A stretch of DNA of 64,000 nucleotides from assembly GCA_963728205.1 (NCBI GenBank), contig CAVSIV010000002.1:448001-512000 (forward strand). Direction: 5' to 3'. The notes under the pieces are model-generated. The model saw nothing but the letters and a program-made list of their open reading frames with translations. It had not been told where the DNA came from and ran no database searches. Below are positions 49,282-64,000 of this stretch, in pieces. How positions within the stretch are numbered: the first letter of the stretch is position 1; every line of letters begins with the position of its first letter. A program made the position numbers and the translations under genes. The stretch comes from an uncultured Chloroflexia bacterium. Lineage in GTDB: Bacteria > Chloroflexota > Dehalococcoidia > UBA2979.

Positions 49282-50568
49282 CTACCGCCGGTCCTGCGCG
49301 GCGAACGTCGGGCCCTCCGGCAGCTCCACGCCCATCTCGCGCGCGGTGGTGTGGTAGATGCCCACCGCCATCGTGGAGCGCTCGCGGCCGGCGCGCGCCA
49401 GGTACACGCGGCCGCGCGCGGCGCGCACCGCGGCGTCGTCCGGCGCCGCGAGGTGCGCCCAGTCCGCCAGGTGGCACGCCAGCCGGTCGTCGCCCGCGGC
49501 CGACAGCGCCTCGGCGCGCGCGGACAGCGCGCCGGCCCCGCCGGCGAGCGACGCGATCTCCTCGGCCTGCGCCTGCTCCGACGCCGGCTTGAGGTGCGAC
49601 GGCTGCCCGTCGTACCAGCCGCCGTACAGCCGCCACACGTTGCGCACGATGAACTCCGGCTCGTCGTAGACCGGCTGCAGGTACGGGCGCGCGATGAGGT
49701 GCTCCGGTGGAAGCACCTGCTGCAGCAGGTCGTCGAGCGACGCGCCCTGGTTCATGAGCGCGAGCGACTGCCGCTCCAGCGACTCCAGGTACTCCGCCGT
49801 CTCCTCGAGCGCCTGCCGCACGCGGTCGCGCCCGGCGATCGGCGGGCCGTGGCCGGGCAGCAGCAGCTCTGCCTCGCGCGCCGCCATCTCGCGCAGCGCG
49901 ACGGCCCACGCCGCGGCGTAGCGCTGCACCTTCTGCGGGTTCCCGGCGTTCGGCGCGACCCAGACGAAGAGGTCGCCGGTGCACAGCACTCCGCGCGACG
50001 GCACCCACACCCACGTCGCGTCGTCGGTCTCGCCCCGGCCGTGGCGGAGGTCGAACGTTTCGCCGCCGATCGTGACGACGAGGCGGTCGCGGTAGGTGGT
50101 GTCGGGGTACCAGTAGTCGGTCGGCCACTGCGGCGCGCCGGCGCCGCCGCGGAACTGGCGCTGGTTGATGATGCCGTTCCAGCCGACGGTCTTGCGGTAT
50201 CGCTCGAACCGCGGCGGGACGGCCTCGTGGGCGATCACGCGCGGCGGCGGCCAGCCGCGCTCGCGCGACTCGGCGGCGTAGCGGTCGGCGCCCCACACGT
50301 GATCCATGTGTCCGTGGGTGTACACCGCTGTGTGCAGCGGCCGGTCGCTGACCGCGCGCACCGCCGCGTGCTTGTCGGCGGCGTTGTTGCGCGCACCCGG
50401 GTCGACCACGACGAGGCCGTCGTCGGTGTCGAAGATCGTCGAGTTCGCGAAGCCGCTGTAGAACCACGTGCGCGGCGCGACCGCCTCGAGGCTGTTCGTC
50501 GCCCGCCACGGATGCCGCTCGTTCGCGCCGGCCCACGCTTGCTCCGCCAGGTCCATGATCTCGCCCAC
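49282..50568 (-). CDS. Alkyl-sulfatase-like metallo-beta-lactamase-fold hydrolase with dimerization domain
   Basis: YTHGHMDH, GETDD, LLPGHG, YGGWYDG; GGAGG SD before GTG. Confidence 0.82.
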   Translation of the reverse strand: MGEIMDLAEQAWAGANERHPWRATNSLEAVAPRTWFYSGFANSTIFDTDDGLVVVDPGARNNAADKHAAVRAVSDRPLHTAVYTHGHMDHVWGADRYAAESRERGWPPPRVIAHEAVPPRFERYRKTVGWNGIINQRQFRGGAGAPQWPTDYWYPDTTYRDRLVVTIGGETFDLRHGRGETDDATWVWVPSRGVLCTGDLFVWVAPNAGNPQKVQRYAAAWAVALREMAAREAELLLPGHGPPIAGRDRVRQALEETAEYLESLERQSLALMNQGASLDDLLQQVLPPEHLIARPYLQPVYDEPEFIVRNVWRLYGGWYDGQPSHLKPASEQAQAEEIASLAGGAGALSARAEALSAAGDDRLACHLADWAHLAAPDDAAVRAARGRVYLARAGRERSTMAVGIYHTTAREMGVELPEGPTFAAQDRR

Positions 50569-50770
50569 CGGTGGCCCTCCCTTCGACCGCAGCGATGGTG
50601 ATGGTAGGGGCGGAGCCGCGCGGACAGTCGTGCCGAACTCCTCACCGCCCTCGCCCGAGTCCACAAGACCGCGATATAAGCCCGTCATCCGGGGCAGTCG
50701 CTCCGTTAGATCAATGCAACACTTGCATCGGGGGCCGTTGACGATCCTGCAATCATTTCAGGGGACCACG

Positions 50771-51619
50771 ATGCGAAATCGCAAGATCAGCCGCCGCCAG
50801 GCATTGCGGCTCGCCGGCGGCTCGGCGCTCGCGGCGCTGCTGTTTCCGACCGCCAACGCCGTTGCCGCGCAACTGTCCGGGTCATCGACGTCGACGGCCG
50901 GCACATCGTTTGCGCCAGCGATGCAGGTGAACCTCGACCAGGACACGGTGTTCGCGACGGCCACGGGCGGCGCGCGCGCCGAGGCGCCGTACCACGCCCT
51001 CGACACCGACTTCGGCGCGGCCGGCGTCCAGGGTCAGCGGTGGTTCGACGCCGCGAAGCGCGCCGGCTACGATGGCCTGATCACGACGCTGCACACGTAC
51101 TGGGGCGGCAACCCGGTCGCCTGGGGGTCGGCGCCGCTGGTGCTCGAACGCGCGCTCGCCGCCGGCCTGTGGATCGGCGCCTACGGGCGGCCCGCCGCGT
51201 ACTGGCGCGAGGCGCTCGCGCCGCTGCCGACGGAGCTGCGTGAGCGGCTCAAGTTCTACGCGCTCGACATCGAGGTCGAGCCCGGCAACACCCAGTTCCC
51301 GATGCAGCGTGCCTACGCGGACGGCGTCGCCGACGAGTTCGGCGTGCGGCCGGTCGTCTACACCGGGTGGGGCATGTGGGGGGACGTGATGGGCTACGGC
51401 TCCGGCGGGTTCGCCGACCTGCCGTTGTGGGACTTCTCCGGGGATCGCGCCGACTGGCCGGCAGCGCTCAGCGACGACGCGCTCGTGCCCTTCGCCGGCT
51501 GGAACACCGCCGACAATCTGCGCACGGGCTGGCAGGTGCAGATGCAGACGCCCGCGACCCTCAACGGCGTCACGATCGACCGCGACCTCTTCTCGCGCGC
51601 CTTTATCGACGCCGTCTAG
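50771..51619 (+). CDS. Tat-exported GH25-like (Chalaropsis-type) muramidase/glycoside hydrolase
   Basis: SRRQAL twin-arginine signal; ALDIE (DxE), PVVYTG..W, LPLW, GWQ, IDRDLF motifs. Confidence 0.7.
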   Translation: MRNRKISRRQALRLAGGSALAALLFPTANAVAAQLSGSSTSTAGTSFAPAMQVNLDQDTVFATATGGARAEAPYHALDTDFGAAGVQGQRWFDAAKRAGYDGLITTLHTYWGGNPVAWGSAPLVLERALAAGLWIGAYGRPAAYWREALAPLPTELRERLKFYALDIEVEPGNTQFPMQRAYADGVADEFGVRPVVYTGWGMWGDVMGYGSGGFADLPLWDFSGDRADWPAALSDDALVPFAGWNTADNLRTGWQVQMQTPATLNGVTIDRDLFSRAFIDAV

Positions 51620-51638
51620 CCGCCGCCTCCGTCGCGGG

Positions 51639-53477
51639 CTACTCGACCGTCACCGTCTTCGCGAGGTTCCGCGGCTGATCGACGTCGGCGCCGCGGATCG
51701 CGGCAACGTGGTACGAGAGCAGCTGCAGCGGCACGGCCGCCACGATCGGGACGAGGAACGGGTCGACCTCCGGTATCTCGAGGACGTCGTTCGCGAGCGT
51801 GTCGCAGGAGTGGTCGCTCTGCGTCACCAGCGCGAGCACCCGGCCGCGCCGCGAGCGGACCTGCTCGATGTTCGACAGCATCTTGTCGCGGAGGCCGTCT
51901 CGCGGGGCGAGCGCGACCGTGGCGATACGCTCGTCGATCAGCGCGATCGGGCCGTGCTTCATCTCCGCTGCTCCGTACCCCTCCGCGTGGACGTAGGCGA
52001 TCTCCTTGAGCTTCAGCGCGCCTTCGAGCGCCAGCGGATAGCCGAGGCCCCGGCCGAGGACGAAACAGTCCTCGTACTGGGCGTACCGCTGCGCGACGCG
52101 CTCGACTTCCGCGGCCGATTCCAGCGCAGCCTGGACGCGCCCGGGCATCGCCAGGGCCTCGCGCACCTGGCGCTCTTCGAGCGCCGGGTCGAGGGTTCCG
52201 CGCAGCCTCCCGAGGGTGAGCGCGAGCCCGTGCAGCATTAGCAGGGACGCCAGGAACGTCTTCGTCGACGCAACGGCCACCTCCGGGCCGGCGCGCAACA
52301 GGATCGTGCCGTCGGCGATCCGGGTCGTCTGTGCGCCGGGGGTATTGCAGAGCGTGATCTGCGGCGCGCCGCGGCGGCGTGCCTCGTCCATCGCCGCGAG
52401 TGTGTCGACCGTCTCGCCGGACTGCGTCACGGAGATGACGAGCGTGTCCCGCCCCAGGAGGGGCGCGCGATAGCGGAACTCGGCGGCGTTGTCGACCTCC
52501 GCCGGCAGCCGCGCGAAGCGCTCGATGTAGTGGCGGCCGATCATCGCCGCGTGCATCGACGTGCCCATCCCGATCAGGACGACGCGACGCAGTGAGCGCA
52601 CGCGGGCCGCGTCGAGCGGCAGGTCGTCGAACGTCGTGCGCGCGGGTGACGCGTGGTACCGCCCGCGCAGCGCGTCGGCGAGCGCCGCGGGCTGCTCGAA
52701 TATCTCCTTGAGCATGAAGTGGCGATACGGCCCGCGCGCCGCCGCCACGGGATCGTACGGGAGCACCTGGACGGACTTCTCGAGCGCCCACCCGGCGGCG
52801 TCGACGTACGTCACGGCGTCCGGGCGGACGTCCGCGACCTCGCCCGGCTCCAGGAACACGACCCGCCGCGCAACCGGAAGCACCGCGCCGACGTCAGAGG
52901 CGACGACGTGCTCGTGGTTGCCGCAGCCAATCACGATGCCGCCCGCGTTGCCCGCGCGGGCGGCGACCAGCCGCCCGGGTTGGTCGCGCGCGACTGCAAC
53001 CACCGAGAAGGCGCCCTCCGTGAGCGCGACCGTGTCCCGCATCGCGTCCAACAGGTCCTGCCCGCGCTCGAGGCACGCGGCCAGCATGTGCGCGAGGACC
53101 TCCGTGTCGGTGTCGGAAGCGAAGTCGCCCCGTGCAAACTGCGCACGCAGCGCGTCGTGATTCTCGACCACGCCGTTGTGCACGACGGCGACGAGGCCGT
53201 CGGGGTCGAGGTGCGGGTGCGCGTTTCGATCGCTCGGCTCCCCATGGGTCGCCCAGCGCGTGTGTCCGATGCCGCTATGACTGTCCGGCAGCGCACCTTC
53301 GAGGCGCTGCACGAGCGTGTCGAGCTTCCCCGCCGACCGCGCGACGTAGAAGTCCCCGTCGGCGCCCGCGAGCGCCAGCCCCGCCGAGTCGTAGCCGCGA
53401 TATTCGACGCGTCGCAACCCATCGAGGATGACCGCCCCCGCTGCCTGGTAGCCGGTGTAGCCGACGATGCCGCACAT
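51639..53477 (-). CDS. glmS: Glutamine--fructose-6-phosphate aminotransferase
   Basis: MCGIVG, EYRGYDSAG, GHTRWATHG, SQSGET-like (TQSGET), EGALKLKEI, DQPRNLAKTVTVE. Confidence 0.96.
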   Translation of the reverse strand: MCGIVGYTGYQAAGAVILDGLRRVEYRGYDSAGLALAGADGDFYVARSAGKLDTLVQRLEGALPDSHSGIGHTRWATHGEPSDRNAHPHLDPDGLVAVVHNGVVENHDALRAQFARGDFASDTDTEVLAHMLAACLERGQDLLDAMRDTVALTEGAFSVVAVARDQPGRLVAARAGNAGGIVIGCGNHEHVVASDVGAVLPVARRVVFLEPGEVADVRPDAVTYVDAAGWALEKSVQVLPYDPVAAARGPYRHFMLKEIFEQPAALADALRGRYHASPARTTFDDLPLDAARVRSLRRVVLIGMGTSMHAAMIGRHYIERFARLPAEVDNAAEFRYRAPLLGRDTLVISVTQSGETVDTLAAMDEARRRGAPQITLCNTPGAQTTRIADGTILLRAGPEVAVASTKTFLASLLMLHGLALTLGRLRGTLDPALEERQVREALAMPGRVQAALESAAEVERVAQRYAQYEDCFVLGRGLGYPLALEGALKLKEIAYVHAEGYGAAEMKHGPIALIDERIATVALAPRDGLRDKMLSNIEQVRSRRGRVLALVTQSDHSCDTLANDVLEIPEVDPFLVPIVAAVPLQLLSYHVAAIRGADVDQPRNLAKTVTVE

Positions 53478-53536
53478 GGAGCGGACCCTTCTGTCGCATC
53501 GAGAACGCACGTTCCTGACTGACTCCCCGTGGGGGG

Positions 53537-53728
53537 TTACGTGGAGGGCCACTTCCACAGTTCGAGCCACATACGCACGCGCCAATCGCGCACCCAGCGG
53601 TACCACCACGGCACCGCCGGGTGAGGTTCGGCGGGGATGTTTGCTCGACCGCTCGCGGCCAGTCCAGGACTGCGGCTTCGTTGCTCCCATCCTTGTGGGG
53701 CCTGACGACGCGTCATATGCTGCTGCAC
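53537..53728 (-). CDS. Putative small Trp/Arg-rich protein (63 aa)
   Basis: AAGGA SD 9 nt before GTG; ...PAVPWWYRWVRDWRVRMWLELWKWPST; shares its leader with the gene starting at 58590. Confidence 0.5.
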   Translation of the reverse strand: MQQHMTRRQAPQGWEQRSRSPGLAASGRANIPAEPHPAVPWWYRWVRDWRVRMWLELWKWPST

Positions 53729-53736
53729 GGTGCTTG

Positions 53737-53796
53737 TTCCTTGTCGTAAGGGGGCGATCACCGACGGGACGGCTGGTGCTCGAACACCAGCCGTCC
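53737..53796 (-). promoter_or_regulatory. Duplicated structured leader element, copy 2 (hairpin + SD-sequestering stem)
   Basis: 12-bp stem GGACGGCTGGTG/CACCAGCCGTCC, then CCCCTTACGACAAGGAA; near-identical motifs at 58598-58648. Confidence 0.6.
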
Positions 53797-53799
53797 TCC

Positions 53800-55014
53800 T
53801 CACCTCCGAATGCTGGACTGCTGGGTGTCGACGGATGGCGGACGCTGCGGCTGGCCGGCAGCGTCCGCTTCGTCGAGCAAGCGATGCGCCGCGTCGACCA
53901 ATGCTGCGTTTCCGCCGGCTTCGATATGCGGCAGTTGATCGCGCACGAGCGCGTCGATGCGCGCGACGTCCGCGCCGACGTTCTCTCCGTCGACCCGCTC
54001 GGCGAGCCGGGCGAAGGTCAGCGCGTCTTGCATGTGCAACACGAGGCTCCACGGCGCCCCGACGTACGTCCGCGCCGCGCGCGGCGAGAGGTAGAGCTCG
54101 CGCAGGGCGCGGTAGCGGGCGAGCGCCGACGTCTTGCCGTCGGTCACCCGCAGCATGTCGGCGACCAGGCCGGTCTTGAGCGCCGGCGTGTCCGCGTCGC
54201 GGCGGGGGTCGACGGCGGAGAGGGCGAGAAAGACGCGCAGGGACGGTTCGTAGCCGTTCGCGCGGCGCACGCGCGGGACGGCGCGGTCCGCGATCGTCGA
54301 TCCGTGCACGGCCGACACGCCCGACGTGTAGCGCGCGTAGGCCTCGTCGTTGGAGGTCACGTCCGGCATCGCGTAGATGCTGCGCATCACGATGGCTGCG
54401 AGCGTCACGTTCTGCCGCGGCTCCCAGATGCTCGTGGAGGCCTGGAACCCCGCGACATGGTAGGGACTGTGCGCGTCCGCCGCCCAGGCGGACGCGGTTC
54501 GCTCCGAGGCGAACGAGACCTGGCCGAGCCCGCGGTCGCCCGGCTCGGGGCCCTGCGCGAGCGGGTCGAGGGCCGACTCCGACGCCAGCGCCTGGAAGAG
54601 GAAGAGCGGCCCGATGCCGACGCGATCGGCGGCGTCGAACACGAGCGGCCGGATTGCGAGGAAGCGGCCAAACTCCACCTCGTTCCACGGACCGAGCGCT
54701 TCCGCCTGTGCGAGAAGCGCCGGACCGTCGGTCCGCGCCCACGCCTCGAGCATCGCGCCGCTCTCGACCGATACGTGGATCGGCAGGTCTCGCGCGCTCG
54801 TCACCGCCGGTCTCTCGGCCGGGCGCGCCACGAAGGGTGCCGCCGGGACGCGCAGGCCCAGCGACGTCGAACCCGGCACGCGGTCGAGGGGGCGCGCCGA
54901 GACCGCGAACCCCGTGTTGACGTGGAGCAGGGCGATGGCGATCACCGAGAGGATCAGCACGCCGGACAGCGTGCTCGCCACGCGGGACGTCGCGGAGGGC
55001 TCGAAGGCGTTCAC
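53800..55014 (-). CDS. Membrane-anchored lytic transglycosylase (SLT-domain) protein
   Basis: N-terminal TM helix; SLT motifs ASES (catalytic Glu), GLGQ, IWEPRQNV, AYARYTSG; GTGA overlap with GT2. Confidence 0.7.
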   Translation of the reverse strand: MNAFEPSATSRVASTLSGVLILSVIAIALLHVNTGFAVSARPLDRVPGSTSLGLRVPAAPFVARPAERPAVTSARDLPIHVSVESGAMLEAWARTDGPALLAQAEALGPWNEVEFGRFLAIRPLVFDAADRVGIGPLFLFQALASESALDPLAQGPEPGDRGLGQVSFASERTASAWAADAHSPYHVAGFQASTSIWEPRQNVTLAAIVMRSIYAMPDVTSNDEAYARYTSGVSAVHGSTIADRAVPRVRRANGYEPSLRVFLALSAVDPRRDADTPALKTGLVADMLRVTDGKTSALARYRALRELYLSPRAARTYVGAPWSLVLHMQDALTFARLAERVDGENVGADVARIDALVRDQLPHIEAGGNAALVDAAHRLLDEADAAGQPQRPPSVDTQQSSIRR

Positions 55015-56237
55015 GCGGCATCCGCCCGCAGCGGGCCGCCGGCGCGGGCGCGTTCCGGCGGTTCGTGCGCGGCGGCGGGGACGACCCGGCGCCGCGCGGG
55101 GCTCTCCCACGCAGAGGAGAGGTGCTCACCGTCGCCGCCGGAGGGCCGCCGCGGGAACGCATGGTGCAGCACGCTGGCGAGCGCGCGAACGCTGTTCGCG
55201 AACTCGAGGAGCATGAGCGCGACCACGAACGGCGCCAGCACCACCATCGCGAAGCGCCCCGTGGCGATCGCTCCGATGAGCACGACCGCCAGCAGGAACG
55301 CGAGCTGGATCGCCAGGTGCAGCGCCAGCGCGTCGCGGCCGCCCGGATAGGCGAACTGCGGCGGCTCGTGCGGCAGAACGAGCAGCACCGGTATCGCGAA
55401 GAGACGCAGGAAGAAGGTCGCCATCAAGACGATCACGACCGCGTTGACGATGTCGAGGCCGCTGGGGCGCAGCCGTCCCACGGGGTCGCGACGCAGCCAG
55501 CACAGGCCCACGCGGTCGATCCGCACGACCTCCCACCATGCCCGGTTCCACCGGTACGTCTGACGCACGAACGCCCGCAGGCCGCGGGGGTCCTGCGTCC
55601 ACACCACCGCGCCCGCGACGTATCTGATCCGTCCCAGGCGCTGGCGATGCGTGGCGATCGAGAGGTGAAAGTCCTCGGTCGAGAGGCGATGGTCGAACCG
55701 GATCTGGCGGAGCGCGCTGACCCGCCACGTGCTGGCGCAGCCCGGCGCGATCGCGACGGCATCGAAGACGCTCTGGAGTCGCTTGAACAATGCCTGCCAG
55801 AAGAAGTAGAGGCACGCACGGTAGATCGAGACGAGGTTGGCCCCGTCGGGGCGTGACTTCACCTGGCCCGCCGCGCACGCCACGCGGTCGTCCGCGAGCG
55901 CGGCGAGCGCGCGTTCGCGGTACCGCGGCTCCATCGTCGTGTCCGCGTCCAGGATCGTGACGAACTCGTAGCCGGACGGGTACACGTCGCGCGTCAGCGC
56001 GTACTCGAGCCCGCGCGACTTGCCGACGTTTGCGGCGTGCCGGATGACGTTGCGTGCCGGCAGATACCGCTCGGCGATGTCCGCCGTGCCGTCGTCGCTG
56101 GCGTCGTCGAAGAGGAAGACGTCGTCCGGCGCGTACGCCTCGAGCACCGACTCGAGCGTCGCCGCGATCGTGAGGCGCTCGTTGTGCGCCGCAACCAGGA
56201 CGGCGGCTCGCCCGGCGGCGACCGCCTCGGTGCTCAC
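55011..56237 (-). CDS. Processive GT2 glycosyltransferase (PgaC/IcaA/cellulose/hyaluronan-synthase class)
   Basis: AAHNE, DDAS, DAD, TED and QTYRW (D,D,D,QxxRW) motifs plus C-terminal TM helices. Confidence 0.88.
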   Translation of the reverse strand: MSTEAVAAGRAAVLVAAHNERLTIAATLESVLEAYAPDDVFLFDDASDDGTADIAERYLPARNVIRHAANVGKSRGLEYALTRDVYPSGYEFVTILDADTTMEPRYRERALAALADDRVACAAGQVKSRPDGANLVSIYRACLYFFWQALFKRLQSVFDAVAIAPGCASTWRVSALRQIRFDHRLSTEDFHLSIATHRQRLGRIRYVAGAVVWTQDPRGLRAFVRQTYRWNRAWWEVVRIDRVGLCWLRRDPVGRLRPSGLDIVNAVVIVLMATFFLRLFAIPVLLVLPHEPPQFAYPGGRDALALHLAIQLAFLLAVVLIGAIATGRFAMVVLAPFVVALMLLEFANSVRALASVLHHAFPRRPSGGDGEHLSSAWESPARRRVVPAAAHEPPERARAGGPLRADAA

Positions 56238-57217
56238 GCCGGTCCCCCGACGAGCTCGCGCGTCGCGCGGCGCGCCAGCCGCCGCGCGATGTCGTCGATC
56301 GTGTACCCCAGGCCCTCCTCGAGGGGCACGGTCGGCCGCCAGCCAAGCTCCTGCTCTGCACGCGTCGTGTCGGGAAGCCGAGCGTCGTGGTCGTGCGCGG
56401 CCCGGGGCACCTCGACAATCTCGCTGCGCGAGCCGGTCAAGGCGACGATCGTCTCGGCCAGGACACGCACGGTCTCGGACTCGTGCGACCCGAGGTTGTA
56501 CGCCCTGCCCGCCGCTCCGTCGCGGAGCACGCGTCGCAGACCATCGACCAGGTCGTCGACATACGTGTGGCAGCGCCGCTGCTCGCCGCGTCCGTGTACC
56601 CGCACCGGCGTCCCGCACAGCGCCGCGCGCACGAACGCGGGCACTACGCGCGTCTCGCGGAGCGACATCCCCGGCCCGTACGTGTTGAAGATGCGAGCGA
56701 CCTTCGCCGCTACGCCGTAGCGCTCCGCGTAGATGCCGCACAGCGTCTCCGCGACGCGCTTGCCCTCCTCGTAGCCGTTGCGCGGTCCCAGCGTGTCGAC
56801 GTTCCCGGTGTACGTCTCGGGCTGCGGCGACACGGTCGGGTTGCCGTAGACCTCGGCCGTCGAGGCCAGCACGACGCGCGCCCCGCAGGCGCGTGCGACA
56901 TCGAGGACCGCGCGCGTCCCGTCGAAGCTTGTCTCCAGCATCTCCAGGGCGAGCGGCCCGAGGTTGGGCACGCCCGTCGGACAGGCAAGGTGGTAGATCT
57001 CCTCGGCACCCGCGCGTCGAGCGATGTCGCGAAAGGCGTCGCTCGTCACGTCCAGCTCGTGGAAGTCGAAGCCCGGCTCCCGCAGCAGGGGAACGAGATC
57101 ATCGCGGTCGCTGGTGATGAAGTTGTCGAAGCCGACGACGGCGTGTCCCTCCGCGATGAGGCCGGCCACCACGTGACGGCCGATGAAGCCCGCGGCACCG
57201 GTGACGATGGCGGTCAT
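56234..57217 (-). CDS. UDP-glucuronate decarboxylase-like NAD-dependent epimerase/dehydratase
   Basis: TGAAGFIG, YHLACP, ASTAEVYG, GNV..GPR..YEEGKR, RIFNTYGP. Confidence 0.85.
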   Translation of the reverse strand: MTAIVTGAAGFIGRHVVAGLIAEGHAVVGFDNFITSDRDDLVPLLREPGFDFHELDVTSDAFRDIARRAGAEEIYHLACPTGVPNLGPLALEMLETSFDGTRAVLDVARACGARVVLASTAEVYGNPTVSPQPETYTGNVDTLGPRNGYEEGKRVAETLCGIYAERYGVAAKVARIFNTYGPGMSLRETRVVPAFVRAALCGTPVRVHGRGEQRRCHTYVDDLVDGLRRVLRDGAAGRAYNLGSHESETVRVLAETIVALTGSRSEIVEVPRAAHDHDARLPDTTRAEQELGWRPTVPLEEGLGYTIDDIARRLARRATRELVGGPA

Positions 57218-58590
57218 CGTCGGCCCTTCCCGCCCGCGGCCGACCGCGGCGCCGATGCCGGCCCGCCCGTCGCGCCGTCGGTCAGCCGGAGCGTTCGCCA
57301 GCCGCGCGACGCCATCGCCTCCGCGTCGAAGGCACGATGGTCGACGAGCATCACCGCCAGGTCGTACGCCGCCGGATCGGCCGACGCGAGGTTCACGGAG
57401 GATCGCCCCGCGAACTCCGAGACGTAGGGGTCGTGGAAATCGACACGCGCCCCGGCCTGCTCCAGGAGCCCCATGATCGCGAGGGCCGGTGAGCGGCGCG
57501 TATCTCCGATCTCCGGCTTGTACGTCACGCCGAGCAGCAGCACCCGCGCACCCTCGAGGCCCCCCTCGAGCCGCTCGGCGATCCGCTGCACGACCACGCT
57601 CGCTCGCGACTCATGGTTCGCCATCGCCGCCGCAAGCACCGGCGCGGCGACGTCGCCCTCGCGCATCGAGTCGTGGAGGAAGTAGGGGTCCTCCGCGATG
57701 CAGTGGCCGCCGACGCCGGCGCCGGCAAAGAAGGGCATGAAGCCGAACGGCTTGGTCGCGGCCAGCCGGGTGACCTCGTGCGAGTTGAGGTTGCGCGCGT
57801 GGCAGTACTCGTCGAACTCCTGCGCGAAGGCGATGTTCACGAAGCGGAACGTGTTTTCGAGGAGCTTCGTCGCCTCCGCCGCCTCCATGCTCGAGGCGGG
57901 CACCACGTCGTCCACGATCTCTCGGTAGAAGCGCAGCGTGAGAGCCGCCGCGCGATCGTCCGCGCCGCTGGTGACCTTCGGGATCTGCTCGAGCTCGAAG
58001 CGCTGGTTGCCGGGGTCGATACGCTCCGGCGAGTAGCCCACCGCGACCTCGCTCGCGGACCCGCGCGGGGCGAGAATCGGCATCACCACGTTCCGGGTCG
58101 TGCCGGGTGCGTACGTGCTCTCGCTCACGATCAGCCGCGGACGGTCGTCCGTCGCGATCTGCGAAGCAACGACCTCCGCCGCGGCCGTGACCAGGGAGAG
58201 ATCGGAGCGACGCGAGCCATCTTCGACGCGCGTCGGCGTGGGAACCGCAATCAGGATGACGTCGCAGCCCCCGAGCACGGCCGCATCCGCGGTGGCGTCG
58301 TACGGCTTGCCCGCCGCGTTCTGCGCGACGCACCGCCGCACCGCTACGGGGTCAATGTCGACACCGAACGTACGGAACCCGACGGTGGCCGCGCGCTGAG
58401 CGAGACCGAACCCCACGTATCCCTGCCCGACGACGCCGACAGTCGCGGTGTGAGAGGCAATGGCGCATTCCAGCGGGTCGGCGGGGTCCGGCCGGAGCGG
58501 CGGCCGCAGACGATCCGGTTCGGAGAGGCGCGCGCGCAGTCGAAGGGGCCCGCGCCCCGGCCGTGACGGGACGACAACTTCTCGTGGCAC
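57214..58590 (-). CDS. Nucleotide-sugar dehydrogenase (UDP-HexNAc dehydrogenase, WecC/WbpA-like)
   Basis: GQGYVG, AVPTP, ESTYAPGTT, SPERIDPGN, KLLENTFR, GVGGHCI..DP. Confidence 0.9.
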   Translation of the reverse strand: MPREVVVPSRPGRGPLRLRARLSEPDRLRPPLRPDPADPLECAIASHTATVGVVGQGYVGFGLAQRAATVGFRTFGVDIDPVAVRRCVAQNAAGKPYDATADAAVLGGCDVILIAVPTPTRVEDGSRRSDLSLVTAAAEVVASQIATDDRPRLIVSESTYAPGTTRNVVMPILAPRGSASEVAVGYSPERIDPGNQRFELEQIPKVTSGADDRAAALTLRFYREIVDDVVPASSMEAAEATKLLENTFRFVNIAFAQEFDEYCHARNLNSHEVTRLAATKPFGFMPFFAGAGVGGHCIAEDPYFLHDSMREGDVAAPVLAAAMANHESRASVVVQRIAERLEGGLEGARVLLLGVTYKPEIGDTRRSPALAIMGLLEQAGARVDFHDPYVSEFAGRSSVNLASADPAAYDLAVMLVDHRAFDAEAMASRGWRTLRLTDGATGGPASAPRSAAGGKGRR

Positions 58591-58597
58591 TGTAAAT

Positions 58598-58648
58598 TTC
58601 CTTCGTCGTAAGGGGGCTGATTGCCGGCGGCAGGTGCTCGAACACCCG
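58598..58648 (-). promoter_or_regulatory. Duplicated structured leader element, copy 1
   Basis: GGTGTTCGAGCACC ... CCCCCTTACGACGAAGGAA, with AAGGA 8 nt before the GTG at 58590. Confidence 0.6.
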
Positions 58649-59103
58649 TTTGGGCCGCGCGGTCGCTTGCTCTACTCGATAACGTCCTCCTGTGGCACGT
58701 GATCGGCGCGTGAAGTCGCCTGATTCGCGCACATCAAGCGTGGCCGGTTGACCCCGCGCTCAAATGGTATGGATTCATCATTCCTCCCCGGGGCTCACCA
58801 ACGGATCACATATGACAGCGACGAGTATCCGTTCGCTCTCATTTTCGACGTATGCAAAATTGTTCTATCCGAAGGCTCGGGGGATCTTCGAGCCACGCGC
58901 CTCGCGAGGTCCGGATGAGACGCGAGCAGCCCATTCGCTGGCGACGCTGGACGGGCCGGGGTTGTGACCGGGGCGAGCACACGACACATCCGGTGCTCGC
59001 CGTCGGTCGCGCCGCGTGCCGATGAGTCGAGGGCGCGCCGCAACCGGGCGCCGCACCTATCATCCCCGCGGCGAGACGCACCACGGAGACGAACGGGGAA
59101 CGC

Positions 59104-59904
59104 ATGGCCGTGCTCGAGACCACGCAGGACGGACACGTCCGCATCATCCGGCTCAATCGGCCGGAGAAGAAGAACGCGCTCTCCCAGGAGCTCGCGTGGG
59201 GCATCATCCACGCCGTCGAGGACGCCGCCGCGGACGACGACGCCTGGGTCGTCGCGATCACCGGCACCGACGACGCCTTCTGCTCCGGCCTCGACCTCTC
59301 GCCGGAGGACGACGGTCGCGACCACACCGGCCTCACCCCGCAGGCTGCCTACCTCGACGACCTGAGCTGGGTCAGCCGCTTCCCGCTCGTCTTGCGCGAG
59401 CGCTGCGACAAGCCGGTCGTCGCCGGCCTCAACGGCGTCGCGGTCGGCGCCGGGCTGTCGCTCGCGATGGCCTCCGACATCCGCCTCATGGCGCAGAGCG
59501 CGCGCCTGATCGCCGGCTACCCGCGCATCGGCGGCTCGCCCGACGGCGGCCTGTCGTGGACGCTGCCGCAGACGATGGGCTACGAGCAGGCGATGCGCTT
59601 CCTCCTCGAGAACCGCACGGTCGGCGCCGACGAGGCGCTGCGGCTCGGCATGGTCGGCGAGGTCGTGCCGGACGATCGCTTCGCGACGCGCTTCGCCGAG
59701 TACTGCGCGTCGCTCACGCACCTCTCGCCGATCACGGCGCGACTGACGAAGCGCGTGGTGCGCCACGCGACGGCGCTTGCCGACCCCGAGGGCCACATGC
59801 GCTACGAGCTGCTCAACATCGGCAGGGCGTTCGGAAGCGACGACGGGAAAGAGGCGCGCCGCGCGTTCCTCGAGCGGCGCGAGCCGCGCTTCGAGGGTCG
59901 CTGA
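59104..59904 (+). CDS. Enoyl-CoA hydratase/isomerase family protein
   Basis: LNRPEKKNAL, AFCSGLDL, NGVAVGAG, PDGG, FLERREPRFEGR. Confidence 0.92.
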   Translation: MAVLETTQDGHVRIIRLNRPEKKNALSQELAWGIIHAVEDAAADDDAWVVAITGTDDAFCSGLDLSPEDDGRDHTGLTPQAAYLDDLSWVSRFPLVLRERCDKPVVAGLNGVAVGAGLSLAMASDIRLMAQSARLIAGYPRIGGSPDGGLSWTLPQTMGYEQAMRFLLENRTVGADEALRLGMVGEVVPDDRFATRFAEYCASLTHLSPITARLTKRVVRHATALADPEGHMRYELLNIGRAFGSDDGKEARRAFLERREPRFEGR

Positions 59905-59930
59905 GCGGGCGCGCACGAAGGGAGACGGAC

Positions 59931-60854
59931 ATGGACATCGGACTGATCGCGCTCGGCGGACGGCTCGAGTCGCTCGTGCAGGGCGCCGCCGACGCCGAGC
60001 GGGACGGCTTCGCGTCGTACGCGATGGCAAACATCTTCGGCCACGACGCGATCGGCACGCTGACGCTCGCGGGCACGCGCACGTCGCGCATCGAGCTGAT
60101 GACGGCGGTGGTGCCGACCTACCCGCGGCACCCGGCCGCGATCGCGCAGCAGGCGCTGACCGCGGCCACGGCGGCGGGCGGGCGGTTCACGCTCGGCATC
60201 GGACTCTCGCACCAGGTGGTGATCGAGGGCATGTACGGCTACTCGTACGACCGCCCTGCACGACCGATGCGCGAGTACCTGTCGATCCTCCTGCCGCTGC
60301 TGCGCGGCGAGCCGGTGCAGGTGGCGGGCGAGCACTACACGTTCCGCGGCGGCCTGCGCGCCGCCGACGTCCCGTACCCCGTGCCCTGCGTGATCGCGGC
60401 GATGGCGCCGGTCATGCTCCGCCTCGCCGGCGAGCTGGCCGACGGCACGGTGCTGTGGATGACCGGCGCGAAGGCCGTCCGCGACCACGTCGCGCCGCGC
60501 GTCCGCGCCGCCGCGCGCGACGCCGGCCGCCCCGAGCCGCGCATCGTCGCCTCGCTGCCCATGGCGCTGACGAGCGACGTCGCCGCCGCGCGCGCGGCGG
60601 CGAACCAGCAGTTCGAGAACTACGGCCGGCTGCCGTCCTATCGCGCGATGCTCGACAAGCAGGGGGCGCCGAACCCCGGCGACGCCGCGCTGATCGGCGA
60701 CGAGGCGGCGCTCGACGCGGCGCTGCGCGAGATGGAGGAGGCCGGCGCGACGACCTTCAACGGCGCGCCCTTCGACGACGGCACCGGGTCGCTGGCCCGC
60801 ACCCACGCGTACCTCGCGTCGCGCGCACGCGAGCGGGCGTCCGCTCGTGCGTGA
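59931..60854 (+). CDS. LLM-class F420-dependent oxidoreductase
   Basis: TAVVPTYPRHP, GRFTLGIGLSH, LAGELADG, LPSYRAML. Confidence 0.88.
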   Translation: MDIGLIALGGRLESLVQGAADAERDGFASYAMANIFGHDAIGTLTLAGTRTSRIELMTAVVPTYPRHPAAIAQQALTAATAAGGRFTLGIGLSHQVVIEGMYGYSYDRPARPMREYLSILLPLLRGEPVQVAGEHYTFRGGLRAADVPYPVPCVIAAMAPVMLRLAGELADGTVLWMTGAKAVRDHVAPRVRAAARDAGRPEPRIVASLPMALTSDVAAARAAANQQFENYGRLPSYRAMLDKQGAPNPGDAALIGDEAALDAALREMEEAGATTFNGAPFDDGTGSLARTHAYLASRARERASARA

Positions 60855-61245
60855 CCCCGGCGCCGGCGACGACACGCTGCGCGTCTGGCGCGTCTACACC
60901 GGCGATGACGCGCAGACGCACGTCGAGACGCTCGACGTGCCGCTCGCCGCGACCGGTCGCGGCGGCGCGATGTCGCGGCTGCTCGCGGGCAGCGGCGTGA
61001 TCCTGCGGCGCACCGGGCTGGAGTACGACCTCGACTGGCACCCCGCGCCGCGCCGCCAGTTCGTCGTCACGATCTCGGGCCGCGGCGAGATGGAGACCAG
61101 CGACGGCACGGTGCTGCCGCTCGAGCCCGGGACGATCGTGCTGGTCGAGGACGTCGACGGCATCGGCCACCGCTCGCGCGCCGTCGGCGACGAGCCGCGC
61201 GTGTCGCTCTTCCTGCCGCTGGACGACGCGACGGAGGTGCCGTAG
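60847..61245 (+). CDS. Cupin-like small protein
   Basis: YTGDDAQTH, WHPAPRRQFV, ED..G.GH motifs. Confidence 0.75.
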   Translation: MRDPGAGDDTLRVWRVYTGDDAQTHVETLDVPLAATGRGGAMSRLLAGSGVILRRTGLEYDLDWHPAPRRQFVVTISGRGEMETSDGTVLPLEPGTIVLVEDVDGIGHRSRAVGDEPRVSLFLPLDDATEVP

Positions 61246-61280
61246 GCGCGCAGGCGGCAGGGCCCGTCGAAGGCGCGTCC

Positions 61281-61365
61281 ACCACAGCGGCGGCAGATAT
61301 GCCGCCGACGCCAACGCGACCCGGGGGCCGCGATCTGTCGGCGGCATGTCTGCCGCCGCTGTGGT
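61281..61365. repeat. REPIN-like element family B, copy 3 (unrelated spacer)
   Basis: ACCACAGCGGCGGCAGATATGCCGCCGAC ... GTCGGCGGCATGTCTGCCGCCGCTGTGGT between convergent genes. Confidence 0.8.
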
Positions 61366-61384
61366 GTCGTCCGCGGCCCACCCG

Positions 61385-62512
61385 CTACTCCGTCAGCGCG
61401 AACGCGTCCGCGTCGGTGATCGCGGCCGCGAGGCGCGCGAGGCCGACGTCGTGCACCGTGCGCATGCGGCCGCTCGGCGGCGCGCCGGCGGCGCCGATCA
61501 CGAAGGTGGCGAACGTGAGGAGCAGCCCCAGCGCGTAGTCGCGGCGCGCGGCGTGCGCGTCGTAACCGCGCACGCCGGCTGCGGCGAGCGCGTCGAGGTA
61601 GGCGGCGATCAGTGCCGCCTCGTGCTGCCGGCGCGCGTCGGGTTGCAGGTCGAGCGCGATGAAGTAAGCCACGTCGTACATCGGCCGGCAGCGCGCGGTG
61701 AACTGCCAGTCGATGGCCTTCGCGCGGCGCTCGCCGTCGCGCGTCACGAAGAAGAGGTTGTCGAGCCGGTAGTCGCCGTGGATCACGCTCACGGGCGGGG
61801 TCGCCGCCGCGGCGAGCAGCGCGGGGTAGCGCTCGATCACCGCCGGCACGCGCGCGGCGAACCCCGCGGGCTCCCGCAGCGCCGGCGCGACGACATCCCA
61901 GGCGCGCCCGAACGCGCCCTGCACCGGCCGTGCGTGGTCGAGCCCGACGGTCGTTTCCGGCAGCCAGTCGAGCGCGTCGCCGAGCTCGGGCGCGTTCCAC
62001 CAGCGCGCGTGCAGCGTCGCGATCGTCTCGACCGCCAGTCGCGCGTCGTCGGCGCTGCACCCGGCGAGCTGGTCGCCCTGCGAGCGCGCGCCGAGGTCCT
62101 CGAGCAGCAGCAGGAAGCCGTCGCTCGTCAGCTCGCCGAAGAAGCAGACCGGCATCGGGAGCGTCGCGGGCGCCGCGGGATGCGCGGCCGAGAGCGCGGC
62201 GAGCTCGCGATAGGCCCGCACCTCGCGCTCGTACCAGCGCTGGAACGCCGCGACCCCGCGCGCGGACGGCGCGCTCGCCGGGAACTTCGCGATCAGCGTC
62301 AGCGGCCCCGCCGCCGCGGAGTACCGCGGCAGCAGTCGAAAGACGTCGCCGTTCACGCCGCCGAGGTCGACCGGGCCGACGCGCACCGACAGCACGCGCG
62401 ACGCCGGGTCGAGCACGCCTGCGTCATGCAGGACGTCGGTGAGCCACGCGGGCGTGATCGCGCCCGGCGCGAGCGGGATGCGTGGCCCGAGCCCGGGTTC
62501 GTGCTGCGGCAA
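61385..62512 (-). CDS. Aminoglycoside/choline/ecdysteroid-kinase-like phosphotransferase
   Basis: LIAK, ERE..AY, LLLEDL, HGDYRLDN, IDWQ. Confidence 0.85.
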   Translation of the reverse strand: MPQHEPGLGPRIPLAPGAITPAWLTDVLHDAGVLDPASRVLSVRVGPVDLGGVNGDVFRLLPRYSAAAGPLTLIAKFPASAPSARGVAAFQRWYEREVRAYRELAALSAAHPAAPATLPMPVCFFGELTSDGFLLLLEDLGARSQGDQLAGCSADDARLAVETIATLHARWWNAPELGDALDWLPETTVGLDHARPVQGAFGRAWDVVAPALREPAGFAARVPAVIERYPALLAAAATPPVSVIHGDYRLDNLFFVTRDGERRAKAIDWQFTARCRPMYDVAYFIALDLQPDARRQHEAALIAAYLDALAAAGVRGYDAHAARRDYALGLLLTFATFVIGAAGAPPSGRMRTVHDVGLARLAAAITDADAFALTE

Positions 62513-62525
62513 CGCGGCGCCCGCC

Positions 62526-63899
62526 TCAGCCCTGCGCCGGCAGCGCGGCCGAGAGGACGTCGCCCACGCCGACCGCCCACCCGAGCAGCGCCTCGTCGTG
62601 CCCGTAGCGCGCGCACAGCTGGAGGCCGAGCGGCAGCCCGCCCTCCGCGGCGCCCGCGGGGAGCACGACCGCCGGCATGCCGGCGTGCGTCCACGGCAGG
62701 TTCATCGCCGGGTCGCCCGTCGCGCCGAGCCCCAGCGGCGCCGGGCCCGGCGCGGCGGGCGACGCCCACGCGTCGACGCCGTGCTCCGCCATGAGCGCCT
62801 CCAGCCGAGCGCGCAACTCCCCGCGGCCGGCCAGGCCGGCGCGAAAGGCGTCGTCGTCGATCGCCGGCGCGCGGTCCATCAACGTGGCGCTCCCCGGGCG
62901 GAACAGCGCGGCGTACGCGCGGAAGCGCTCCGCGTGCACCTCCGCGAACTCGCGCGTGGTCAGCGCGCGGTGGCGGGCGGTGATGGCGTCGATGTCGTCG
63001 AGCGCCGGCACGCGTCGCACCACGTAGCCCGCGGCGCGCAGCGCGTCGAGCGCGCGCTCGAAGCCGGCCAGCCCGTCGGCGGCGGCCTGCGCGAGGTAGG
63101 CGCCGTCGGGCACGCCGAGCACCGGCCGACGCGCGGTCGGCGCGGCGACCTCCGCCTCCCGCCAGCCATCGACCAGCACGCGCGCGGCGATCGGCGCGTC
63201 GGCCGCGCGCTGCACGAACCAGCCGACGGTGTCGACCGAGCGCGAGTACGGCAGCACGCCGTCGCTCGGCACGCGCCCGTAGCTCGGCTTCACGCCGACG
63301 ACGCCACAGAACGCCGCCGGCCGGATCACCGAGCCCACCGTCTGCGTGCCGAGCGCCAGCGCGGCAATCCCCGCCGCGACCGCCGCCGCGGAGCCGCTGC
63401 TCGAACCGCCGGGCGTGCGCGCGGGCGCGTGCGGGTTCGTCGTCGGACCCGGGTCGAAGTACGCGAACTCCGTGGTGACGGTCTTGCCGACGATCAGCGC
63501 GCCGGCCGCCCGCAGCCGCGCGACGACCGGCGCCTCGGGCATCGCGAAGGACGCCGCCGGCACCATCGACCCGGCGCGCGTCGGCAGCCCGTCGACCGCA
63601 ATGATGTCCTTCACCCCCACCGGAGTCCCGAAGAGCGGCGGGCGCGCCGCCGGGTCGGGCCAGCGGCGTTCGAGCGCGGCCGCGTCGCGGAGCAGCCGCT
63701 CGCGGCGGCCGGGCTCGGGCAGCAGCGCGCGCAGGCGCGGCTCGACGGCCTGGATGCGGTCGCAGAGCGCCTCGACGTACCCCGCCAGCCCCCCGGGCGC
63801 GCGCGCCGCAGCGTCCAGCGGAGCGTCCGCGAGCAGCGGCGCCTCCGTGTCAGCGGCGGCCGGGGCGGCGGGTGCGCGGTGGGCGCGAGGTGCGGTCAT
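62526..63899 (-). CDS. Amidase (amidase-signature/GatA family)
   Basis: GVKD, GKTVTTEFA, TPGGSSSGSAAAV, GTQTVGSVIRPAAFCG. Confidence 0.92.
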   Translation of the reverse strand: MTAPRAHRAPAAPAAADTEAPLLADAPLDAAARAPGGLAGYVEALCDRIQAVEPRLRALLPEPGRRERLLRDAAALERRWPDPAARPPLFGTPVGVKDIIAVDGLPTRAGSMVPAASFAMPEAPVVARLRAAGALIVGKTVTTEFAYFDPGPTTNPHAPARTPGGSSSGSAAAVAAGIAALALGTQTVGSVIRPAAFCGVVGVKPSYGRVPSDGVLPYSRSVDTVGWFVQRAADAPIAARVLVDGWREAEVAAPTARRPVLGVPDGAYLAQAAADGLAGFERALDALRAAGYVVRRVPALDDIDAITARHRALTTREFAEVHAERFRAYAALFRPGSATLMDRAPAIDDDAFRAGLAGRGELRARLEALMAEHGVDAWASPAAPGPAPLGLGATGDPAMNLPWTHAGMPAVVLPAGAAEGGLPLGLQLCARYGHDEALLGWAVGVGDVLSAALPAQG

Positions 63900-64000
63900 C
63901 CGCGCGATGATAGCGGCCGTGTCCGGAGCCGGACGTCGCGGTACCATCCCGCGATGCAGCACGCCTCGCCCGCGACCCCGCCGCCGCCCGAGCCGTTTCG

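Follow-up and report, generated by a model that had tools for sequence, protein, structure and literature searches.

What does a short sequence element do that stands at both ends of a gene cluster, directly before its first gene and directly after its last? This question is raised by a 64,000-nucleotide (nt) stretch of DNA from an uncultured Chloroflexota bacterium of the class Dehalococcoidia (assembly GCA_963728205.1, contig CAVSIV010000002.1, positions 448,001 to 512,000), which we refer to throughout as the window. Third-position G+C content and family searches define a four-gene sugar-polymer cluster on the minus strand of the window, with one copy of the element, site A, before the cluster and another, site B, after it. 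A first-pass annotation, made from the letters of the window alone, had described a motif duplicated in these two places, oriented as the genes and keeping a set spacing to a GTG codon, and we found that both sites read as it had claimed. Each is a bipartite minus-strand element of about 60 nt that consists of a core, GGTGTTCGAGCACC, a linker of 16 or 20 nt, a second box, GCCCCCTTACGA (box 2), the Shine-Dalgarno sequence AAGGAA, and a GTG, with the AAGGA ending 8 nt before the GTG at site A and 9 nt before it at site B.

By reading the sequence directly and by pattern searches, we placed site A at 58646-58588 on the minus strand, with its core at 58646-58633, a 16-nt linker, box 2 (GCCCCCTTACGA / GCCCCCUUACGA) at 58606..58617, and a ribosome site and start codon that together span 58588..58603 (AAGGAA at 58603-58598, GTG at 58590-58588). 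This GTG is the true start of the nucleotide-sugar dehydrogenase gene that opens the cluster, since the only in-frame starts are codons 1 and 59 and the alignment with the ortholog in a second genome begins already at residue 30; in that genome, too, the start codon at site A is the true one. Site B occupies 53788-53726 on the same strand, with its core at 53788-53775, a 20-nt linker, box 2 (GCCCCCTTACGA / GCCCCCUUACGA) at 53744..53755, and the ribosome site and start codon within 53726..53742 (AAGGAA at 53742-53737, GTG at 53728-53726). The core is a palindrome that is imperfect at a single position, T5/G10, where the minus-strand transcript has a U-G wobble and the opposite strand an A-C mismatch.

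Within the window the element is confined to these two sites. A search for the 14-nt core with up to two mismatches gave four matches, of which the exact ones are sites A and B only, and a search for CCCCTTACGAC with up to one mismatch gave two, both exact and again sites A and B. The whole genome (G000; 4,125,032 bases in 6 contigs, 72.5% G+C, 89% complete) gave the same answer to the genome search that the first-pass annotation had called for: each box has exactly two exact copies, so that the motif is not scattered. At one mismatch the core produced 20 more rows, in which palindromic matches are counted on both strands, and the single non-site locus with such a core that was read proved to be coding sequence (VFEH-type). 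Among the 20 matches to CCCCTTACGAC at up to one mismatch, a hairpin stands beside two, which are sites A and B.

Both copies of the element also occur at orthologous places in a second genome, G081, which belongs to the same family, although to another genus, and which carries the same four genes and a linked gene for a secreted protein. Copy A' (13304-13245 of locus L013, minus strand) stands before the ATG of the dehydrogenase gene, and copy B' (L013 8529-8466, minus strand) stands after the stop codon of the homolog of P0003, the last gene of the cluster. Judged from the sequences of the two loci, this recurrence is the decisive point against a chance resemblance. The core and GCCCCCTTACGA are invariant in all four copies, and 47 of 50 bases are the same in B and B' (binomial P ~7e-13), so that the conservation in a related locus for which the annotation had proposed to look is present. 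The proteins of the two genomes, by comparison, are 51-74% identical, and the identity at four-fold degenerate sites (identical residues, four neighboring genes) is 0.465, which is saturation for this composition. Because B and B' have remained so similar while four-fold sites have become saturated, the sequence comparison indicates strong purifying selection on the element at both of its positions. Moreover, B is closer to its ortholog B' than to its paralog A, from which it follows that homogenization within a genome, or gene conversion, is not the cause of the identity.

The surroundings that are conserved with the element are those of a translation start. In 4/4 copies the element is oriented as the genes and adjoins a ribosome site and a start codon, as had been claimed for the first two: an AGGAA is followed 6-10 nt on by ATG or GTG, an arrangement that holds for 686 of 4204 AGGAA sites genome-wide. 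What copy B starts is another matter. Its GTG opens a frame of 63 codons (53537..53728, minus strand) that has no family match and a third-position G+C content (GC3) of 0.69, as against 0.88-0.92 in the cluster genes, and which is therefore probably not a conserved protein; B' is followed by a frame of 14 codons of unrelated sequence and then by a spacer of more than 300 nt. The micro-protein that the first-pass annotation had seen here thus does not look like a coding sequence. Its further suggestion, that the element co-regulates this micro-protein together with glmS, fails on conservation: in G000, glmS (51639..53477, minus strand, beginning MCGIVGY) starts 249 nt downstream of the GTG of site B and has a ribosome site of its own, AGAAGGG, while the next genes past the spacer in G081 encode an ECF-type sigma factor and two OmpR-type regulators, with no glmS among them. 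The genes downstream of copy B are not conserved between the genomes, yet both B copies keep a working-looking initiation site even though the frames that they open are not conserved.

Our tentatively favored reading is that the element works in cis, as an RNA signal within the transcript of the operon, and tunes the use of the ribosome site beside it. We prefer this account on the strength of the orientation of the copies, their adjacency to start codons, the variable linker, the position of B 3 nt past a stop codon, and the significant hairpin at B and B'. Such a signal would have two modules. The first would be a hairpin, P1, whose apical 14 nt, GGUGUUCGAGCACC, are constant while its lower stem differs between copies; a fixed apex on a free stem suggests that a trans-acting factor, most likely a protein, would read the apex. 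The second would be the box GCCCCCUUACGA, a copy of the anti-Shine-Dalgarno sequence, which could pair with AAGG or GAGG and so compete with the ribosome. Copy A is the translation initiation region of the sugar dehydrogenase, and copy B, 3 nt past the stop of the fourth gene, offers the same initiation region to a short unconserved frame and might serve as a second controlled initiation site, as a decoy for the same factor, or as a 3'-end hairpin. The action at the level of RNA, the factor at the apex, and the masking of the ribosome site as output are what we infer from the arrangement described here.

For the hairpin, the evidence is strongest at the B copies. Two folds are open to the core, GGUGU/UCGA/GCACC and GGUG with UUCGAG as its loop, and in each copy the flanks extend the stem with a different sequence. 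At site B, P1 (53767..53796, minus strand) has 13 consecutive pairs, GGACGGCUGGUGU / UCGA / GCACCAGCCGUCC, and at B' it has 8 pairs, one mismatch, and 5 pairs. None of 2000 sets of shuffled flanks extended the stem as well as those of B, and the corresponding fraction for B' was 0.0185. The whole element folded better than shuffles at both (z = -3.14 for B, with 0/200 shuffles folding as well, and z = -3.22 for B'), and within the 8-pair extensions of the two, one A-U pair is exchanged for a G-C pair. When we aligned the four copies, 81.3% of cells paired and three pairs changed on both sides, a result that 11 of 500 shuffles reached, while slid registers of the same alignment paired at 29-61%. 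For four related sequences, we regard this as no more than suggestive, and the covariation for which the first-pass annotation had proposed a test is minimal.

The second module is best seen against the 16S rRNA of the two organisms, whose 3' end is GGAUCACCUCCUUU in both. Box 2, as CCCCCUU, matches 6 of the 7 letters of the 16S anti-Shine-Dalgarno CCUCCUU and lies 0-3 nt before the Shine-Dalgarno sequence. In the predicted minimum-energy folds, its CCUU pairs with AAGG or GAGG in all four copies, which supports the earlier claim that this stretch can hide the Shine-Dalgarno sequence. Masking of this kind is familiar from ROSE and fourU RNA thermometers and from the expression platforms of translational riboswitches, in which, as we propose here, the ribosome site is paired with a short pyrimidine stretch just ahead of it, at least one hairpin comes before this stretch, and the action on the start is in cis. 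RNA thermometers keep the ribosome site in a weak hairpin that melts with temperature; the element is predicted to have a four-pair stem of CCUU with AAGG or GAGG in 4/4 copies. It differs from these known leaders in that it has no Rfam match, its masking box is C-rich and copies the 16S anti-Shine-Dalgarno, its 14-nt hairpin apex is invariant, and it occurs twice in one operon.

Several observations weigh against the reading that we favor. The CCUU:AAGG stem has only four pairs, and its loop varies between 6, 5, 3, and 4 nt across the copies. The flanks of A and A' extend the stem no better than shuffled flanks do (0.148 of 2000 shuffles and 0.35, respectively), and the whole-element folds are no better than shuffles either (z = -0.05 and +0.35); P1 at site A (58627..58658, minus strand) takes the form GCGGC/GCCGC, a 6-nt bulge, and G-GGUGU / UCGA / GCACC-U, and at both A copies the extension is broken by a bulge or an internal loop. 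The first-pass annotation had argued that the wobble in the palindrome favors RNA structure, which is true of the invariant core only; once 14-nt flanks are included, the better fold is that of the sense strand at two of the four sites and that of the antisense strand at the other two. Four copies from two genomes give covariation almost no statistical power. A second helix that would close the ribosome site (GGUG/CACC at B and B', GGCA/UGCC at A) looked like covariation and was rejected as expected by chance, with shuffle P values of 0.64, 0.53, and 0.81, 0.04 at B' alone, and no helix in that register at A'. We likewise rejected a ribosome-driven switch: when the 5' strand of P1 was forced open in the folding model, the ribosome site was not freed, its unpaired probability going from 0.40 to 0.38 at B and from 0.48 to 0.36 at A. 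Finally, the invariance of a near-palindrome is equally expected of a DNA operator.

This last point leads to the alternative that the 14-bp near-palindrome is an operator for a dimeric transcription factor, placed downstream of the operon promoter at A and at the operon end at B, with box 2 as a separate feature of the initiation region. The core would suit such a protein, as it offers two 7-bp half-sites that are invariant but for one asymmetric position in 4/4 copies, and the even split in strand preference and the lack of significant pairing past the core at A and A' are what a DNA site would show; an 8-nt sequence, TATCGAGT, found 35-37 nt ahead of the core at A and A' alike, could belong to the promoter. 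We nevertheless consider a DNA operator unlikely. A homodimer should be suited at least equally well by a perfect palindrome, and yet the T5/G10 asymmetry is kept in all four copies; the 8-pair extensions of B and B', with their exchange of one pair, speak against this account, and it leaves both box 2 and the fixed position before a ribosome site unexplained. Copy B, moreover, lies directly behind a gene (the stop codon of P0003, TGA at 53802-53800, is 3 nt ahead of the first paired base of the hairpin), and a search for sigma-70-like promoters found no sites in 53400-54100 or in 58500-59100, ECF-type geometry being checked by eye only. The core and box 2 do not themselves have the geometry of a promoter of the sigma-70 or ECF type, which would keep its two boxes at a fixed spacing: the linker between them measures 16, 20, 21, and 20 nt in the four copies, and this variability argues against a fixed -35/-10 geometry. 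Nor did we find a regulator or recombinase gene among the neighboring genes scanned, so that no regulator stands beside the cluster in the window, and the regulators that follow B' in G081 (the ECF sigma factor and the two OmpR-type proteins) are not at the G000 locus.

If a protein reads the transcript rather than the DNA, known RNA-binding systems offer points of comparison. CsrA (PF02599) is encoded in both genomes (66.8 and 60.4 bits in G000 and G081, against a cut-off of 27), and CsrA/RsmA proteins recognize the consensus RUACARGGAUGU, with its GGA in a hairpin loop. The element has a stretch, UUACGA...AGGAA, that overlaps the ribosome site and loosely resembles this consensus, a GGA overlaps the ribosome site in 4/4 copies, and three of the four have a second GGA (AGGACG), either ahead of the core or within P1, while the fourth has GGA triplets upstream, all at variable distance. 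The GGA at the ribosome site is in a predicted stem and not in a loop, however, UAC and GGA are 3-6 nt apart and not 2, and the apex is without GGA, so that the sites appear to fit the CsrA consensus only loosely. The iron-responsive elements that are bound by aconitase/IRP share a different feature with the element as we propose it, namely a fixed apical sequence on a free lower stem that controls translation from the 5' side and has another outcome on the 3' side; there is no sequence relation, and the analogy is one of logic only. Leaders that head polysaccharide clusters and carry a conserved element are also known from the ops/JUMPstart-RfaH and LoaP systems. The ops sequence, GGCGGTAG, is in neither leader, its six matches in the window all lying elsewhere, and both G000 and G081 have one gene with a NusG domain, which leaves no specialized paralog of the RfaH or LoaP type.

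Taking these comparisons together, the element is most likely a new version of the theme of ribosome-site-masking leaders, and its twin placement is unusual. Should it act as RNA, it would be an undescribed leader motif from the Chloroflexota, a phylum from which, to our knowledge, few cis-regulatory RNAs have been described. Its layout, in which one module of a hairpin and a masked ribosome site heads a polysaccharide operon and recurs right after the last gene, is also unusual, and at about 60 nt it offers a compact test case for how an apex-specific hairpin and an internal anti-Shine-Dalgarno copy set translation.

That the two copies bracket the four-gene unit in G000 as well as in G081 also agrees with another possibility, in which P1 is a processing or stability signal that imitates the minihelix of a tRNA acceptor and T-arm and is cut or capped by an enzyme that processes or binds tRNA. 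Such an enzyme might give the messages of the first gene and of the downstream region the same mature 5' leader, made up of linker, box 2, and ribosome site, or might protect the 3' end of the operon. The apex, G-UUCGAG-C, resembles the T-loops of the organism's own tRNAs, with GTTCGAG in the T-arm of 11 of 67 predicted tRNAs, and the stem of B has 12 pairs below the 6-nt loop, which is the length of a tRNA acceptor and T-arm minihelix; that of B' has 13 positions with one mismatch. After B, a spacer of lower G+C content runs for 249 nt in G000 and for more than 300 nt in G081 before the next real gene. On the other hand, the loop has 6 nt where a T-loop has 7, and a 7-nt loop would put the stem out of register; the hairpin is not followed by a CCA-like tail, ARAGORN calls no tRNA at either site, and the stems of A and A' are interrupted as described above. 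On balance, a processing signal of this kind seems to us quite unlikely. A related and more speculative idea, which we think improbable, is that the apex is a T-loop one base short on a stem of minihelix length, a mimic of the tRNA elbow at the head and the tail of the message that would be read by a tRNA-handling factor, with box 2 as a built-in off state. Candidate readers would be a processing nuclease, an enzyme that modifies the T-arm, or the ribosome itself, and the maturation or translation of a sugar-polymer operon would then be coupled to the tRNA machinery. As for a role of P1 in ending transcription, a search for intrinsic terminators found no terminator-like sites in 53400-54100 or 58500-59100, and no T run follows the hairpin.

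A small molecule could take the place of the protein factor if the apex, the linker, and box 2 formed a pocket for a ligand (a nucleotide sugar, glucosamine 6-phosphate (GlcN6P), or a cyclic dinucleotide) that stabilizes or opens the masked ribosome site. We consider a riboswitch of this kind highly unlikely, even though the sequence is conserved beyond the needs of pairing, adjoins a ribosome site within a sugar-polymer cluster, and as a whole folds significantly better than shuffles at B and B'. Both the linker and the distance from box 2 to the Shine-Dalgarno sequence vary, no multi-helix junction or pseudoknot is supported (by eye, the loop of P1 and box 2 can form at most three consecutive pairs), and for a sensor of a metabolite, the distribution of the element, which we describe below, is extremely narrow. 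Relaxed scans of the window, of the G081 locus, and of short inputs (E up to 10 on the short input) found no relevant match to any Rfam 15 family at either site; the sole matches were to generic microRNA and small-RNA hairpin models, at 9-16 bits against gathering scores of 36-535, and all of them were at site B, with none at site A. The first-pass annotation was right that the element does not resemble the glmS ribozyme, for which (RF00234) neither window positions 50000-64000 nor 53690-53815 gave a match at E up to 10. A known riboswitch that is close in outline is guanidine-II (mini-ykkC), with its two hairpins that have ACGR tetraloops. Like it, the element has two hairpins joined by a variable linker, CG in the loops (UCGA and ACGA), and a second hairpin beside the ribosome site; unlike it, loop 1 is UCGA/UUCGAG in 4/4 copies and not ACGR, loop 2 has 3-6 nt, Rfam gives no match, and the context is sugar-polymer synthesis and not guanidine export.

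The cluster between the two copies stands out from its surroundings. In window positions 50468-58700 its GC3 is 0.88-0.92, as against 0.94-0.98 in the flanking metabolic genes, and it is present in 2 of 99 family genomes, so that it looks like a horizontally acquired island. One might then ask whether the two copies are direct repeats that were left by, or are used for, the site-specific insertion or excision of a four-gene cassette. The copies do flank exactly the unit from the dehydrogenase to P0003 in both genomes, the genes past copy B differ, and a patchy cluster of deviating composition would fit. We nonetheless regard this as exceedingly unlikely, given that no integrase or recombinase is present among the neighboring genes scanned, that the linkage to the cluster in both genomes extends to the gene for the secreted protein, which the repeats do not enclose, and that a ribosome site and start codon in each copy, with A as a working start region, would have no explanation.

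Our searches for further copies point to a control element that is probably new and very narrowly distributed. The composite DNA pattern had no match in 60 relatives, and in a genome collection with one genome per species, the strict composite pattern matched eight loci, two of which are the G081 copies (L015 and L019); we judged the other six to be chance matches, as they are without a stem extension and without a ribosome site. A scan of metagenomes with the pattern gave 19 loci that all belong to one unrelated coding sequence. We also built a covariance model, R1, on the four copies and searched it over the 99 family genomes, where the known four scored 58-84 bits and the best foreign match 28.9 bits. 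All 14 foreign matches that we read are unrelated: five are one coding sequence of one genus, two are another shared stretch with a GGTGTACGAGCACC core, and the rest are hairpins of other kinds. In a genome of the same family but another genus, one locus (L047, G067:C22:26116-26177, plus strand) contains GATCGCCCCCTTACGG, identical in 15 of 16 letters to box 2 together with its site B flank; it is preceded by an unrelated 10-pair hairpin, and we saw no ribosome site after it. In a full-text search of the literature with the motif strings, the matches listed were to 'ccccttacga' only, in papers with titles on unrelated subjects, and none of those listed contained the 14-mer.

The distribution of P0003 is similar. 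Relatives of this protein are encoded in 2 of the 99 family genomes, G000 included (an order-level scan covers the same 99 genomes), and among 401 class genomes and 401 phylum genomes sampled, none was found beyond G000 itself. Among 5.8 billion proteins, P0003 has relatives in four clusters, while a metagenome scan for its peptide pattern matched 244 stretches, of which none was confirmed. Two of these clusters, P0010 and P0011, contain the scanned peptide, DPLAQGPE, and their contigs therefore probably lie outside the scanned metagenome collection, so that the blank metagenome result says nothing about the loci of these two clusters and our scans for the element concern loci beyond them. The value of the element as a subject of study is limited by this distribution over two uncultured genomes.

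The four genes that the element brackets are all on the minus strand and, by family searches, fit the synthesis of a sugar polymer. The nucleotide-sugar dehydrogenase (57214..58590) is recognized by Pfam and by TIGR03026 (288.5 bits against a cut-off of 189.8) and is 67% identical to its G081 ortholog. It is followed by an NAD-dependent sugar epimerase/dehydratase (56234..57217) and by a family-2 glycosyltransferase (55011..56240, start approximate) that resembles PgaC/IcaA and NodC, with NCBIfam matches that are all below cut-offs, and which is probably a processive synthase, to judge from these likenesses. P0003 (53800..55014, with the shorter, 404-residue start) is a membrane-anchored protein with a core like that of transglycosylase SLT domains and the motif ESxxDPLAQGPExGDRGLGQVS; its G081 homolog (L013 8544-9743, minus strand) has PF01464, and in both loci seen, G000 and G081, the gene follows that for the glycosyltransferase. 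We rejected the idea that an arginine-rich N-terminus of P0003 is an RNA-binding arm, since the form on record is the shorter one, whose start and the stop codon of the preceding gene overlap by 4 nt.

The secreted protein that is linked to the cluster in both genomes (50771..51619, plus strand, start approximate; L013 13526-14428, minus strand, in G081) has a twin-arginine signal, SRRQALRLxGGS, and matches no Pfam or NCBIfam family. The two versions are 56% identical over 292 residues, and the position and orientation of the gene relative to the cluster differ between the genomes. The protein may be a glycoside hydrolase for the polymer. Past this gene in G081 there is a perfect hairpin, GATGCCCTCGCAGTGCGAGGGCATC (L013 13453-13485, minus strand), that is probably its terminator, which would put A' in a separate transcription unit. 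Upstream of the core at A and A', by 35-45 nt, an additional block is common to both sites and is not found at the B sites: AGGACG, 2-4 nt, and TATCGAGT(A/T)AG, at window positions 58671-58692 and at L013 13331-13350, both on the minus strand. This block may belong either to the promoter of the operon or to the leader's 5' end.

Past the spacer that follows B' in G081, the minus strand of L013 1742-8114 encodes the ECF-type sigma factor and the two OmpR-type response regulators together with a family-less protein and two FHA-domain proteins, one of which has a von Willebrand A (VWA) domain. The G000 homologs of these regulators and of the VWA-FHA protein lie together about 155 kb from the cluster (C2 ~658,700-661,600).

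Elsewhere in the window, between a cupin gene and a kinase-like gene, is a long GC-rich palindrome (61281-61365) that is made of inverted units, GCGGCGGCAGATATGCCGCCGAC and its complement. Units of the form GGCGGCA, 3-6 nt, TGCCGCC number 385 in G000, compared to 5 for a reversed control pattern, and often form inverted pairs about 50-150 nt apart. They are a repeat family like repetitive extragenic palindromic (REP) elements or miniature inverted-repeat transposable elements (MITEs), unrelated to the leader motif, and the GGCGGCA/TGCCGCC palindrome accounts for spurious matches to Rfam microRNA models.

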